The position numbers and the translations under genes were made by a program. Shown here one piece after another: positions 1 to 5,970 of a stretch of DNA of 8,535 bases (positions are counted from its first letter, which is position 1; each line of letters opens with the position of its first letter). Source of the stretch: a virus; UHGV virus genome UHGV-1434900; one strand, 5' to 3'. The notes beneath the pieces are model-generated. The model worked only from the letters and a program-made list of their open reading frames with translations, did not search any database and was not told the DNA's origin.

Positions 1-513
1 AAATATTGCGATTATTATAAAAAGAATAACAAGTAAAATGCCAAAGCTAAATGCCGCTATTCTCTCGTGTGCTTTTGTCAATTTTTCTTTTCCTTTATTG
101 TCAAATCCATATACTGGCATATCTTCATTAACGAAAAGATTCCTTATTTCTTTTGCAGAACGTTTGTCATGGGCTTTTACTATCCTTTGCATTGAAGCAA
201 AAGCAGTGGAGCTTGGTTTAATACTATTATCATTCATTACCTCTCTATATTTTTTGTAATGAGCTAAGATAAGGTGAAGAACATCAATGCATGTTTCTGC
301 AAGCCATTGATTCCATTGAGTATTATTTAATTCATCTACTGTTCTGTTATGTGCAGCGCAGTGTTCTAAATAGCCGAAAAAACTGTCTCCACATGAATTC
401 ACGGTATCAAAATCACATTTACCAGATAGGTAACACTCTAATGACTCAGTATATTTTTCATATAAACGCTCAATTTCTTTTTTTTGATTATCAATGATAC
501 CGTGAACATCCAT
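1..513 (-). CDS. Hypothetical protein, partial (open through window start); at least 171 aa, hydrophobic segment AFSFGILLVILFIIIAIF at the window edge
   Basis: Hand translation of the - strand from ATG at 513-511 gives 171 codons with no stop down to position 1 (MDVHGIIDNQKKEIERLYEKY...). Absent from the ORF track, probably because no stop lies in the window. No strong SD. The + strand ORFs 38-259 and 291-497 are its antisense shadows. Confidence 0.45.
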   Translation of the reverse strand, partial: MDVHGIIDNQKKEIERLYEKYTESLECYLSGKCDFDTVNSCGDSFFGYLEHCAAHNRTVDELNNTQWNQWLAETCIDVLHLILAHYKKYREVMNDNSIKPSSTAFASMQRIVKAHDKRSAKEIRNLFVNEDMPVYGFDNKGKEKLTKAHERIAAFSFGILLVILFIIIAIF

Positions 514-524
514 ATCTGATTTCA

Positions 525-800
525 CTATCTTTTTTGTTGAGTGTTATTTGACTGGGATTGAATTTTTGCCAATAGCGAACTTGCTTTCGATGTATTCAAT
601 CCATTACAAATCATTCTTGTAATCGGTTTTTTGTAAATTCGATGAACGATATTTTCAACTTCAGTGATGCTTTCATTGCCACTGAGTTTTTTTATCTCAT
701 TGAACATCTCCTCCAATTGTTCATTTGTTGGATGCCATTTGATTATATCTAATTCTTCCTCTAATGCTTTTTTAAAAAGGAAAACCTGAAAAGATAACAT
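525..800 (-). CDS. Hypothetical protein, 91 aa
   Basis: ORF with ATG at 800-798 preceded by AGGAAAG-type SD that lies in the last codons of the upstream ORF (coupling); AT-rich codon usage consistent with neighbours; no recognisable family. Confidence 0.5.
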   Translation of the reverse strand: MLSFQVFLFKKALEEELDIIKWHPTNEQLEEMFNEIKKLSGNESITEVENIVHRIYKKPITRMICNGLNTSKASSLLAKIQSQSNNTQQKR

Positions 801-801
801 A

Positions 802-1116
802 TTACTTTCCTTGTGTTGGTTTAGTAGTGGATTGTTGAGCTTTTTCTAAAAGCCTTTTTGCTTTAGATGTGTCCAAACCATCTTGGGCAAAGCCTTGTTG
901 CTTATCATTCTGTTTTTGTTCACTTTTTTTTGGCGTATTCATCAGTATATACTTTGACTCGTTTTGTTTATCTCGATGACTTACTTTTTGTTTAAGTTTT
1001 GCACAAACTAGAACGTGCAGTGTTGGTAATACTGCACGTTTGTACCATTCGTGGTACTTAATCCTTTTGTTTGGCAGACATGAGATCTTCTGCTGCATCT
1101 TTAGAGTAGTTATCAA
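802..1116 (-). CDS. Small lysine/glutamine-rich hypothetical protein; start uncertain (full ORF 104 aa; internal ATG at 942-940 would give 46 aa)
   Basis: ORF ends 1 nt before the next ORF start; its C-terminal tail (GLDTSKAKRLLEKAQQ) resembles the tail of the 525-800 product (GLNTSKASSLLAKIQ), with matching DNA similarity. The 5' part overlaps the 1058-1240 gene and a palindrome, so the long form is doubtful. Confidence 0.3.
   Translation of the reverse strand: MITTLKMQQKISCLPNKRIKYHEWYKRAVLPTLHVLVCAKLKQKVSHRDKQNESKYILMNTPKKSEQKQNDKQQGFAQDGLDTSKAKRLLEKAQQSTTKPTQGK
1012..1040. promoter_or_regulatory. Perfect 10-bp inverted repeat (AACGTGCAGT / ACTGCACGTT) with 9-nt spacer; operator or attenuator/terminator hairpin
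   Basis: Read directly from sequence; lies just downstream of the RHH-like gene on the - strand; no adjacent U-run, so not a classical intrinsic terminator. Confidence 0.35.
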
Positions 1117-1240
1117 TCAGATAACCTAAAATCTCTGTCCATGTAATTGTTTTTCCTAGTTTTACACTGGCATTTATAGCCAGTCGTTCTAGTTTCATTT
1201 TTCTTTCTTCCGTCACGTTATAAGTCGTGCGCTTTGCCAT
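1058..1240 (-). CDS. Small ribbon-helix-helix-like DNA-binding protein (CopG/ParD/Arc-type), 60 aa; candidate regulator or antitoxin
   Basis: MAKRTTYNVTEERKMKLERLAINASVKLGKTITWTEILGYLIDNY fits the beta-strand / helix / G-x-T turn / helix pattern of RHH proteins; divergently oriented to gII. Confidence 0.5.
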   Translation of the reverse strand: MAKRTTYNVTEERKMKLERLAINASVKLGKTITWTEILGYLIDNYSKDAAEDLMSAKQKD

Positions 1241-1367
1241 TTTTTACGCTCGTTCAATGCAATATTTGAAGTGAGTATACATGCTCATGAACTCATATCA
1301 TCCAAGCCTCTTGAACTCACTAGCTCACTGATGTAATGTTAAAACACTAATGAACTACTGAACTCAT
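1241..1367. promoter_or_regulatory. Divergent control region between the RHH gene and gII, with four direct TGAACT(C/A)(A/C)(T/C) repeats (1288-1296, 1312-1320, 1351-1359, 1359-1367) and a candidate sigma70 promoter toward gII (TTGAAC 1311-1316, 17-nt spacer, TAATGT 1334-1339)
   Basis: Repeats and promoter-like hexamers read from sequence; function is inferred (operator/iteron set and gII promoter). Confidence 0.4.
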
Positions 1368-3283: not shown

Positions 3284-4534
3284 ATGAAAAGGAAAATATT
3301 AATTCTTTCCGCTGTCCTCATTTCTCCTTTTTCACATGCTGAGTCATGGGAAAGCATTACTAAATCCACTTATCAAAGCTCTGCCTACGCTGAAAGTAAG
3401 CAAATAACCAATCAGGATGGCTCTAAGTCAACGGTTTACTATATTGATGCTGCTATGCAGGCCTCCGCTTGTCAGGGTGCTAAATCCAGTGCTCAGAGTG
3501 TATTTACTCAGGTTAAACCAACTTATGAGGGTATCTGGCCTGATTCTGAATTCCGTCTTGTTTTTACTGGTGATTGTACTTACAGCGATTCACCAGGGCA
3601 GAAGGATAAATATTGGTCTTTAACGGCTTATATTGTTGGTGATATTCAGCGTTCTGTTCCTGATGAAAAACCTACTGACCCGACACCAGAAGAAATTTGT
3701 GAAGCGAAGCCGCCAGAAGAAGGTGTATTTAATAATGTTGATTCATATGATGGTGGTCGTTATATCTACTATAACGGCTGTGAATATGAGGCTACTGGTG
3801 TCATTGTTTGTCAGGGTGATGGTACTGTTTGCGCTGCAACATGGAAGCCTACAGGTACTGTAGCTGACCCCTCTGATAAACCCTCAACCCCCCAAAATGG
3901 TGGTGGTGAGTCTGGCGGTGGTGAGTCTGGCGGTGGTGAGTCCGGTGGCGGTAGTTCTGGCGGTGGTGAGTCCGGTGGCGGTAGTTCTGGCGGTGGCTTT
4001 AGTGGTTCCAGTCTTTCTAAAGGTGATATTCAGTCTGCTATCGAAGGTGCTTCACCCAAAATAGCCAGCGATATTCATGATAAATTAACGGAGAAAGACA
4101 CTTCATCAGATGATAAAAAAAATGCCGATGAACAAACTAGGAATAATATAAATCGTCTTGACGATTCCATTAACAATCTTACGCGGGGGGCTGGCCGTTT
4201 TGCTGACCCTTCAGGTGGTGATTCTCGTTATGGAAAGGGCGACTCTGAATTAGATGGCGCTTCTACTTTGGCTGATTCTGAATTGGGAATTGAAAAGGAT
4301 TCTCACGGTGCTTTATGGGAAGCATTTTTAAATAAAGGTGCTATGCTGCCTAATTTACCCAATGGTAACGGCTGCTCTGATTTTATTATTTTTCCCGGAG
4401 AGGTTTATCAGATTGATATTGGTTGCGATAAATTACTGACTATTAAAGATGTTCTTTCATGGGTTTTTTATTGCCTTACGTTCTGGTATGTCTTTACTTC
4501 TTTAACTTCATTGCTTCGCAAAGGGGGTGAGTGA
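3284..4534 (+). CDS. gIII: Gene III adsorption/minor coat protein (416 aa incl. signal peptide)
   Basis: Signal peptide [19 protein letters not shown]; internal Ff N1-like TolA-binding motif [33 protein letters not shown] (vs Ff RYANYEGCLWNATGVVVCTGDETQCYGTWVPIG); Gly/Ser/Glu linker; C-terminal anchor [17 protein letters not shown]. The ORF-track start at 3140 overlaps gVIII and the terminator and is rejected. Confidence 0.9.
3898..3993 (+). repeat. Coding tandem repeat for the gIII glycine-rich linker (15-bp unit x2 at 3901-3930; perfect 30-bp unit x2 at 3931-3990)
   Basis: Directly visible: ggtggtgagtctggc x2, then ggtggtgagtccggtggcggtagttctggc x2, giving [10 protein letters not shown]...GGGSS. 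Confidence 0.85.
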
Positions 4535-4875: not shown

Positions 4876-5970
4876 ATGGCGGTTCATGTAGTAACAGGCA
4901 AATTAGGCTCAGGCAAGACACTTGTTAGTGTTTCCAGAATACAGGAAAGACTTGCTAAGGGTTGTCCTGTTGCCACTAATCTTGATCTTAAATTGCATAA
5001 TATGCCTATGGTTGGGCGTTATGCGAAAAAAACGCGCGTTATTCGCATTCCTGACAAGCCTTCATTAAATGATTTACTTGCTATTGGTATTGGGAATACA
5101 TCTTACGATGAATCCCGTAATGGCCTCCTTGTACTTGATGAATGTGGTACTTGGTTTAATTCCCGCTCATGGGGTGATAAAGACAGACAACCTGTTATTG
5201 ACTGGTTTTTACATGCCAGAAAATTAGGCTGGGATATTATATTTTTGATTCAGGATATTTCGATAATGGATAAGCAAGCTCGTCTGGCGCTTGCTGAGCA
5301 TGTTGTTTATTGTCGCCGTTCAGATAAATTAAACATTCCTTTTGTTGGCTCCATTATGAATTTGGTTTCAGGGGCGCGATTTTCTTTACCAAAGGTACAC
5401 TTTGGCATTGTCAAATATGGTGATAACGTTAATTCAATTACTGTTGATAAATGGATATACACCGGAAAATCATTATATTCCGCCTACAATACAAAACAGG
5501 TTTTTACTGATAACTATCCGCATGGTGCTTATTCGCTTTTGCCACCATTTATCACGCACGGTCAATTTTCTGTTCACAGAGGATTTAATTATTATATGCG
5601 CCTCACGAAAATTTATTTTCGCAAATCGAACCGTCTTATATTAATGCTTTCTTTTTTGGCGCTGGGGCTTGCGCTTGGTTTCTGGCTCCAGTCTGGAAAG
5701 AATGTTGATGAAATCTCCGCTATTAAATCTGCTTATGCTGAACAGGCGAGGGCGGTAACGCCTGATTCGTCCAGTGACTTACCCCGACTTTCTATTAATT
5801 CTTTTTCACAACTTGGCTTTGACGTTTCCGTTACGTTTGTTGATGCAAAAGGTACGAAATATCAGTATTTTGATTTGATTAAAGATGGTTATTCCGTTGA
5901 TATTAAAGATGCCTGTCGTGTTGTTATTAGAAAAGGCCGTTATTTACAGACTGTTATCTGTCAGGAGTAA
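4876..5970 (+). CDS. gI: Gene I assembly ATPase (Zot-like, Walker A GKLGSGKT)
   Basis: Strong similarity to Ff pI along the whole length (MAVHVVTGKLGSGKTLVSV..., LLVLDECGTWFNSRSW, DWFLHARKLGWDIIFL); starts right after the gVI stop. Confidence 0.93.
   Translation: MAVHVVTGKLGSGKTLVSVSRIQERLAKGCPVATNLDLKLHNMPMVGRYAKKTRVIRIPDKPSLNDLLAIGIGNTSYDESRNGLLVLDECGTWFNSRSWGDKDRQPVIDWFLHARKLGWDIIFLIQDISIMDKQARLALAEHVVYCRRSDKLNIPFVGSIMNLVSGARFSLPKVHFGIVKYGDNVNSITVDKWIYTGKSLYSAYNTKQVFTDNYPHGAYSLLPPFITHGQFSVHRGFNYYMRLTKIYFRKSNRLILMLSFLALGLALGFWLQSGKNVDEISAIKSAYAEQARAVTPDSSSDLPRLSINSFSQLGFDVSVTFVDAKGTKYQYFDLIKDGYSVDIKDACRVVIRKGRYLQTVICQE
5596..5970 (+). CDS. gXI: Gene XI protein: in-frame internal restart within gI (C-terminal 124 aa with TM segment)
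   Basis: Internal ATG at codon 241 of gI (MRLTKIYFRK...) corresponds to the Ff pXI start (MKLTKIYLKK); by analogy only. Confidence 0.5.
   Translation: MRLTKIYFRKSNRLILMLSFLALGLALGFWLQSGKNVDEISAIKSAYAEQARAVTPDSSSDLPRLSINSFSQLGFDVSVTFVDAKGTKYQYFDLIKDGYSVDIKDACRVVIRKGRYLQTVICQE

Follow-up and report, generated by a model that had tools for sequence, protein, structure and literature searches.

A putative ribbon-helix-helix immunity repressor and its probable repeat operators next to gII in a dif-integrating filamentous prophage of E. coli

The divergent locus and its control region

The DNA analysed here is an 8,535-nt stretch of the virus genome UHGV-1434900 (the window, meaning the whole stretch), in which a small regulator gene and the replication gene gII are transcribed away from each other across a repeat-containing spacer. 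The regulator gene, a putative immunity repressor gene, is an open reading frame (ORF) at 1058-1240 on the minus strand (RefSeq WP_001335098.1) and encodes a 60-amino-acid (aa) regulator of predicted ribbon-helix-helix (RHH) type, MAKRTTYNVTEERKMKLERLAINASVKLGKTITWTEILGYLIDNYSKDAAEDLMSAKQKD. On the plus strand, gII (1410-2462) encodes a rolling-circle replication initiator of 350 aa (Pfam Phage_CRI, 6e-69; G2P_X_C, 5e-29), with a GTG start at 1410 behind a Shine-Dalgarno sequence GAGG (1398-1401). The two genes enclose a divergent control region of 169 bp (1241-1409). A preliminary description of this DNA had proposed a lysogeny switch here, formed by an RHH regulator and repeat operators in the role that rstR, ig-2 and rstA play in CTXphi, and it was right about the 60-aa ORF divergent from gII. 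It placed the gII start at 1368, which is merely the first in-frame start after a stop codon. We place the start at GTG 1410 because RefSeq does so, because the Pfam G2P domain starts at residue 16 of the long gII ORF, and because nucleotide similarity to gII of related prophages begins exactly at 1411. Hence the spacer measures 169 bp and not 127 bp, and the last repeat, rather than abutting gII, ends 43 bp upstream of it.

An AlphaFold2 monomer model of the regulator, built with a 33-sequence homologue alignment, is confident (pLDDT 94). Residues 1-9 are extended, with a predicted strand at about residues 4-9 (RTTYNV), and are followed by helix A (10-27), a G-K-T turn (28-32) and helix B (33-58). 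An N-terminal strand with two helices behind it, connected through a short G-x-(S/T/N) turn, is the topology of an RHH protein. DSSP assigns the N-terminus of the monomer model to coil; since the strand pairs only in the dimer, an extended N-terminus fits an RHH monomer. Profile comparison by hhalign with CopG put the strand, helix A and helix B in register (E 0.002, probability 14%), and the regulator is structurally similar to omega. The RHH fold predicted earlier is, as judged from the model, well supported. Membership of any named RHH family is not established. ParG was matched by 7 of the 33 homologues (best E 0.0041, with no curated cutoff for these members), and by the family profile in a search of the PDB at E 0.028 over helix B only; hhalign against the omega sequence gave a non-significant alignment confined to the strand. 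Foldseek with the regulator model gave no significant match, and Pfam no family match for the 60-aa regulator itself. The protein belongs to PHROG phrog_2503, a family without assigned function. Its exact sequence is listed in some 16,000 index blocks of the collection of assemblies, there too without a family name or function.

The four TGAACT(C/A)(A/C) repeats reported in the preliminary description lie in the spacer adjoining the regulator gene, as expected in silico for an RHH-class protein with short repeats near its own gene, and the repeats of the relatives are specific to regulator subfamilies (see below). TGAACT occurs on the plus strand of the window only at 1288, 1312, 1351 and 1359. 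The exact 8-mer TGAACTCA is found three times on that strand, always within 1241-1409 (about 0.13 copies expected in the window per strand), and only 7 of 5000 dinucleotide-preserving shuffles reached four copies of a 6-mer in the 169-nt spacer. The repeat extends to a 12-nt unit, CT(C/A)NTGAACT(C/A)N, at 1284, 1308, 1347 and 1355; the final two copies overlap, with starts 8 bp apart. The core unit TGA(A/G)(C/T)TCA is nearly palindromic.

Two promoters are predicted in the control region. That of gII (1311-1339, plus strand) was read from the sequence and consists of a -35 element TTGAAC (1311-1316), overlapped by the second repeat copy (1312) as noted previously, a 17-bp spacer and a -10 element TAATGT (1334-1339). 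Its -35 is invariant and the -10 pattern TAnnnT is kept in 5-6 of 7 relatives; it matches the consensus at only 7 of 12 positions and so was not called by the promoter scan. The sole promoter-like site that the scan of 1000-1500 returned is the predicted regulator promoter (1274-1301, minus strand; -35 ATGATA at 1301-1296, 16-bp spacer, -10 TATACT at 1279-1274). Shuffled sequence yields about one site as well (mean 0.9), and the scan by itself is therefore weak evidence; the window shares GAGTATAC with Brenneria, Phytobacter and the locus of the homologue P0059, and the -10 is kept in the closest relatives.

Relative to these promoters, the repeats define three putative operator sites. O1 (1280-1295, CATGCTCA + TGAACTCA, with the full repeat at 1288-1295) sits between the -10 and -35 of the predicted leftward regulator promoter, and its CATGAACTCA is kept in 6 of 7 diverged spacers. 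O2 (1312-1327) is an imperfect inverted pair, TGAACTCA + CTAGCTCA, that overlaps the predicted gII -35. The sole long invariant block among seven spacers whose regulators are 57-98% identical to that of the window, TCTTGAACTCA (1309-1319), lies here; the second half of O2 reads AGTTCA or GTTCA in Phytobacter and Scandinavium, which makes the site a palindrome. O3 (1351-1366, TGAACTAC + TGAACTCA) comprises two abutting 8-bp units at about +5 to +20 from the predicted gII transcription start. The equivalent place in relatives holds two to three abutting 8-bp units, direct or inverted (TGAGTTCA x3, TGAGTTAC x3, TGAATTCA x2).

Some further sequences in and around the control region were noted. The 8-mer occurs inverted only once in the window, as TGAGTTCA at 7831-7846 within a 77-aa ORF (7739-7972), and TGAGTTTC starts 9 bp after the start of this copy, which could be a distal operator or due to chance. 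A 23-nt direct repeat (78% identical, 1221-1243 and 1375-1397) flanks the control region: the left copy lies in the opening codons of the regulator gene, the right copy shortly before the ribosome-binding site of gII. Both copies have TAAGTCGT and a run resembling TTTTTGC; the repeat lacks conservation in Phytobacter and was set aside. No LexA box was found as CTG-N10-CAG in the spacer or as CTGT-N8-ACAG in the whole window, and Rfam had no match in the window.

Prophage unit, homologues and cassette exchange

Several E. coli isolates from humans contain the window in their chromosome at 100% identity. The window carries an inovirus gene set: gII, gV, G7P-2, genes for the major coat protein and the attachment protein, a gVI-like gene, a Zot-like gI and the secretin gene. 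An exact E. coli dif site (GGTGCGCATAATGTATATTATGTTAAAT, 8011-8038) marks the right end of the prophage, and a truncated LysR gene (8226-8516) belongs to the host flank beyond it. The prophage occurs in tandem copies that repeat every 8287 bp: in strain MS 200-1 the segment with the regulator gene and gII recurs 8287 bp upstream, and an imperfect dif (GGTGCGCATAATGTACGACTCGTTATGTTGAAAA, 3724-3760 of locus L001) lies at the junction of the tandem copies. The regulator gene sits within this repeated unit and hence belongs to the phage, not to a separate neighbouring element. The element, described before as an Ff-like phage, is rather a temperate dif-integrating inovirus related to CUS-1 and YpfPhi, for which a dif-integrated tandem lifestyle has been reported (PMC4266046).

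The arrangement is conserved in related prophages, with homologues of the regulator divergent from a replication gene in at least 15 inovirus lineages. A tblastn search of phage genomes retrieved records named 'RstR' or 'RstR-like' (environmental CTXphi, pre-CTXphi alleles, Vibrio phage VAI1) as well as several saliva inoviruses, one Aeromonas phage and phage If1. The 'environmental RstR' of CTXphi and pre-CTXphi is about 41% identical over 95% of the regulator (E 4e-6 to 6e-6). Every locus that could be read has a divergent rep gene across a spacer of about 100-170 bp, namely VAI1, pre-CTXphi, Dulem virus 53, D_HF5_61, Dickeya, Actinobacillus and five metagenomic or enterobacterial loci. The identical 60-aa protein, present in 10 chromosomal contexts, is always exactly 169 bp from the 350-aa gII, and the genes on its other side vary.

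Some of the homologous loci differ in layout. In Salmonella serovar Telelkebir and on a Logan contig (L015/L016), a regulator with the strand TTYTLA and its TGAATTCA repeats is divergent from a 60-aa ORF followed by a secretin fragment, not from a rep gene; the prophage there has apparently decayed and kept its regulator cassette. Phage If1 (L028, NC_001954.1, 5100-7470) has an unannotated regulator homologue, 58% identical, in its 'major intergenic region', and this gene is parted from the operator region and gII by about 1.9 kb of inserted DNA with an IS200/IS605-type element (a Y1 TnpA without annotation, and a TnpB that the record calls 'ORF348, eryA-like'). The insert begins in the first ~25 bp of the regulator-gII spacer, beside the regulator start codon. 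By similarity to the Dickeya prophage, If1 gII apparently starts near 7317 (MFFDWLT...); the record gives 'ORF320' with its start at 7464. Possibly, then, If1 is a mutant of natural origin whose repressor has been disconnected.

Repeats recognized by the replication protein would be expected to follow the Rep lineage, and we found that they do not. In the dif prophages of E. coli M19, NU14 and APEC E19057 the gII protein is 85% identical to that of the window, a 148-150-aa HTH_3/CI-type repressor of the helix-turn-helix (HTH) class stands where the RHH gene would be, and the spacers lack TGAACTCA. With blastn these HTH-type prophages are similar to this part of the window only at 989-1068 and from 1411 onward, the DNA between (about 1069-1410) being replaced. 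Conversely, TGAACTCA is kept at the loci of the regulator homologues P0059 (86% identical), P0063 (78%) and a Scandinavium prophage (88%), beside unrelated or distant replication genes: the Rep of P0059 reaches gII only at a BLASTP E of 0.004, that of P0063 gives a local alignment only, and the downstream gene of the Scandinavium locus is unrelated. The predicted strand is TTYNVT in P0059 and P0063 and MTYNVT in Scandinavium.

Every subfamily of regulators comes with a repeat of its own, which varies with the six residues of the predicted strand. TTYNVT goes with TGAACTCA; KTYNIT with TGAACTCA and three tandem TGAGTTCA; TTYNLR with three tandem TGAGTTAC; TTYTLA with TGAATTCA; TTVSIT with TGAGTAAC; YVYNVR with TTCATT; TTMAIV (If1, Dickeya) with a TTATGC-type repeat; and T(S/T)VR(I/V)N (Vibrio, Pasteurellaceae) with (T/C)ATG(C/T)(G/A). 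Most subfamily spacers contain two to three units that abut at 8-bp spacing just upstream of rep, in either orientation. One RHH dimer binds per unit in the met-boxes of MetJ and the heptads of omega, and the near-palindromic unit with its 8-bp abutment would fit the same stoichiometry here. The HTH swap, the presence of the repeats beside unrelated Rep genes, their covariation with the strand and the invariant TCTTGAACTCA block together imply that the repeats belong to the regulator. Judged from these alignments, the regulator gene and spacer (about 1069-1410) are an exchangeable cassette, HTH and RHH types replacing each other precisely between 1069 and 1410 beside an 85%-identical gII, and they swap as a unit as in the CTXphi-type immunity class.

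On its left the cassette is bordered by a candidate f1-like (+)-strand origin (1012-1057, plus strand), which lies immediately 3' of the regulator gene within the conserved block 989-1068. It was recognized from its hairpin and palindrome architecture and its conservation, and aligns with the f1 origin core. Hairpin 1 (1012-1040, plus strand) has the loop GTTGGTAAT and a predicted nick at T1027/A1028; palindrome 2 (GTACCA-TTCG-TGGTAC, 1042-1057) begins 14 nt past the predicted nick, as in f1. The f1 equivalents are the loop GTTCTTTAATA, with the gpII nick before AATA, and the palindrome GTTCCA-AAC-TGGAAC. Folded as DNA, the two hairpins reach -16.3 kcal/mol (z -4.57). HTH-type prophages of the same gII lineage have hairpin 1 unchanged and both arms of palindrome 2 altered in a compensatory way (GTCTCA...TGAGAC), and the P0059 phage, with its different Rep, carries another double hairpin at the equivalent place. 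A search of the whole window for the f1 nick-site sequence with up to three mismatches found none. The resulting layout of origin, leftward repressor gene, control region and rightward rep matches the ig-1/rstR/ig-2/rstA order of CTXphi.

CUS-1 (E. coli O18:K1:H7) and YpfPhi (Yersinia pestis) share with the phage in the window the dif site, tandem copies and overall gene order, and their gII and gV are of the same lineage (85% identity). NU14, also O18:K1:H7, has the 148-aa HTH repressor in the slot and partly different morphogenesis genes, a UTI89 protein falls in the same HTH cluster, and the HTH-type gII cluster includes Y. enterocolitica members; the prophage of that species has been described as highly homologous to CUS-1/Ypf (PMC3161016). 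On this indirect evidence CUS-1 and YpfPhi probably carry the HTH cassette, and the window is probably a heteroimmune relative of theirs. Resident YpfPhi is reported to provide partial protection against superinfection (PMC4266046).

Proposed repression of gII, alternatives and known systems

We consider it likely that the 60-aa RHH repressor and its operator units constitute an exchangeable immunity cassette that silences gII in this E. coli filamentous prophage. A regulator dimer would read TGA(A/G)(C/T)TCA-like 8-bp units with its N-terminal beta-ribbon (TTYNVT), placed in their major groove; these units are arranged singly or in abutting pairs at the three sites O1-O3 across both divergent promoters. 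Occupancy of O2 on the gII -35 and of O3 on the first transcribed bases would block gII transcription. Because all rightward genes follow gII, the prophage, and equally any incoming phage of its own type, would then neither replicate nor produce virions. O1, inside the leftward promoter of the regulator itself, would mediate autoregulation. The self-contained cassette (about 1069-1410), bordered by the (+) origin and the gII start codon, would recombine between phages. The regulator has no cleavable or extra domain. In YpfPhi the rep promoter is reported to be under RovA control (PMC4266046), and host factors may lift the repression here. Overall, the anatomy of the region is consistent with repression of gII and the genes behind it, together with autoregulation, the comparisons between related genomes strongly suggest it, and every comparative test that we ran supported the idea of a lysogeny switch.

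One of the closest known systems is RstR/ig-2/rstA of CTXphi, and the likeness drawn in the preliminary description extends beyond the layout. As with RstR, the gene is divergent from rep with a control region in between (about 130-170 bp in both), and it is homologous to proteins called RstR, namely the environmental alleles. Further shared features are an allele-specific exchangeable repressor cassette before a conserved rep and tandem integration at dif. The systems differ in that the window protein is a 60-aa RHH regulator and canonical El Tor and classical RstR are HTH proteins, in that rep is of the Ff G2P type (Phage_CRI) versus the Rep_trans type of RstA, and in that the window lacks a LexA box. 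An RHH in place of an HTH repressor had been presented as setting this phage apart. The RHH assignment stands, but such a protein is not new to CTXphi-type phages, whose ~41%-identical homologues are already deposited as 'RstR'.

The canonical El Tor and classical rstR genes are 336-339 bp long (PMC11509585). A 2024 study lists eleven rstR alleles, of which eight were tested; calc, rstR5 and rstR6 are short, at 180, 204 and 192 bp, and in a lux reporter each tested V. cholerae allele lowers expression from its own ig-2 promoter versus heterologous ones (PMC11509585). The rstR6 primers encode MKKKYTSLRV... and ...TDLKR, like the V. cyclitrophicus inovirus regulator (MTQKYTSLRV...) and environmental RstR (...TGLKR). 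From these protein termini, rstR6 probably belongs to the regulator family, so that at least one member would already have been shown to repress. The literature that we could search contained nothing linking rstR with 'ribbon-helix-helix'.

Alternatively, the regulator might bind the repeats and act mainly as an activator or a Cro-like switch that tunes gII in productive infection. O1 within its own promoter fits activation and repression alike, the missing LexA box leaves no obvious induction mechanism, and YpfPhi-type phages show constitutive low-level production (PMC4266046). We nevertheless regard this as unlikely: the -35 element and the stretch just past the predicted start, where O2 and O3 lie, are typical repressing positions, sister prophages have HTH CI-type repressors in the equivalent slot, and related rstR alleles repress (PMC11509585).

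The omega repressor (pSM19035) and ParG (TP228) are RHH proteins that bind arrays of short repeats, with a unit sequence that differs from ours, and act in addition as centromere partners of a ParA ATPase. An omega-like RHH protein has been described in one Pseudomonas filamentous phage (PMC10534721). The regulator could accordingly be imagined as a centromere-binding protein, with the repeats as the partition site of the replicative form and repression as a side effect. Its structural similarity to omega, the weak sequence similarity to ParG and the short unspaced arrays in either orientation, typical of omega and ParG sites, point this way; the similarity is too weak for family membership. 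Yet neither the ORFs nor the RefSeq annotation of the 8.3-kb unit include a ParA-type gene, gI/Zot being the sole P-loop ATPase there. The units number only 4-6 and lie exactly on the two promoters, and the protein occupies the rstR position of CTXphi variants whose alleles act as repressors. A partition role thus appears very unlikely.

As very improbable we rate an iteron function, in which gpII would bind the repeats at the (+) origin, the 60-aa protein being incidental. TGAACT resembles the gpII-binding repeats TGGAC/TGGAAC of f1, and Ff phages have their origin upstream of gII. Against this stand the complete absence of the repeats beside 85%-identical gII, their retention with the regulator beside unrelated or very distant Rep, and the much better f1-like origin at 1012-1057 (TAATA-loop hairpin, 14 nt, palindrome), conserved with the gII lineage. 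The CTXphi origin, too, lies in ig-1 and not in the rstR-rstA spacer. Just as improbable is a type II toxin-antitoxin system, in which the RHH protein would be the antitoxin, the next minus-strand gene the toxin and the repeats their operator. No conserved toxin follows in the same operon: behind the identical 60-aa protein we found no fewer than four unrelated gene sets (46+91+230 aa; 140 aa with various others; Fic; others). Between the regulator gene and the next gene lie the candidate origin and some 100-150 bp, and the partner conserved across the family is the divergent rep gene.

The repressor interpretation also places the regulator beside MetJ, Arc, Mnt and CopG, which are of the same fold class, although none has a detectable close sequence relationship to it. 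Recognition would be via the beta-ribbon, and CopG aligns in register. The abutting 8-bp units recall met-boxes; MetJ needs a corepressor. Arc and Mnt are P22 regulators at divergent promoters that control the immI antirepressor of a tailed phage, not an inovirus replication gene. Immunity cassettes that can be exchanged and RHH repressors that act on arrays of repeats are familiar, and we therefore claim no new mechanism: the cassette design is ordinary, the repressor family uncharacterised.

The chances are, in our view, about even that a wider picture holds. The regulator would represent a widespread, unnamed RHH immunity-repressor family of inoviruses (Enterobacterales, Vibrio, Pasteurellaceae, metagenomes) that includes the short CTXphi 'rstR', reads its operators through a code of six residues and 8 bp, and resides in cassettes whose exchange with HTH types yields heteroimmune dif prophages in pathogens, If1 being a natural mutant whose repressor gene has been cut off from its promoter by an IS200/IS605 element. 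Filamentous dif prophages affect virulence and fitness in E. coli, Yersinia, Salmonella and Vibrio, and their silencing is poorly defined outside CTXphi and Pf. An RHH repressor with defined 8-bp operators would offer a handle for typing prophage immunity groups and for predicting which phages superinfect which lysogens, and compact orthogonal repressor/operator pairs (60 aa and 8-bp units) could be engineered. A structural class for the short CTXphi rstR alleles would follow. The apparent strand-operator code, the precise cassette borders and the If1 observation seem to us most worth pursuing.

Cargo genes and other features of the window

The attL-side genes past the regulator (window 1-1000) are variable cargo among prophages with an identical regulator. 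In the window they encode 46, 91 and 230 aa; other loci have a 140-aa gene and others, or a Fic/Doc-family ('death-on-curing') gene, and at one locus with the identical regulator a Mob_CxxC_CxxC protein is among the cargo. A program-called 104-aa ORF (802-1116, minus strand) overlaps the 3' end of the regulator gene and the candidate origin. RefSeq annotates 46 aa only (802-942) for it, and phrog_6875 matches its residues 7-104. The C-terminus of the 104-aa ORF (GLDTSKAKRLLEKAQQSTTKPTQGK) is like that of the 91-aa product (525-800, minus strand; GLNTSKASSLLAKIQSQSNNTQQKR), a resemblance that suggests an internal duplication.

Two long perfect hairpins lie in rightward noncoding DNA, one at 7240-7286 directly past the secretin stop codon and the other at 7623-7667 past a 102-aa ORF; they are candidates for terminators, a packaging signal or the (-)-strand origin. 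Outside the control region, a 6-mer occurs at least four times within 169 nt in two regions of the window, at about 5831-5951 and at 3800-3950, where the attachment-protein gene contains a run of GGGESGGGS-type repeats.

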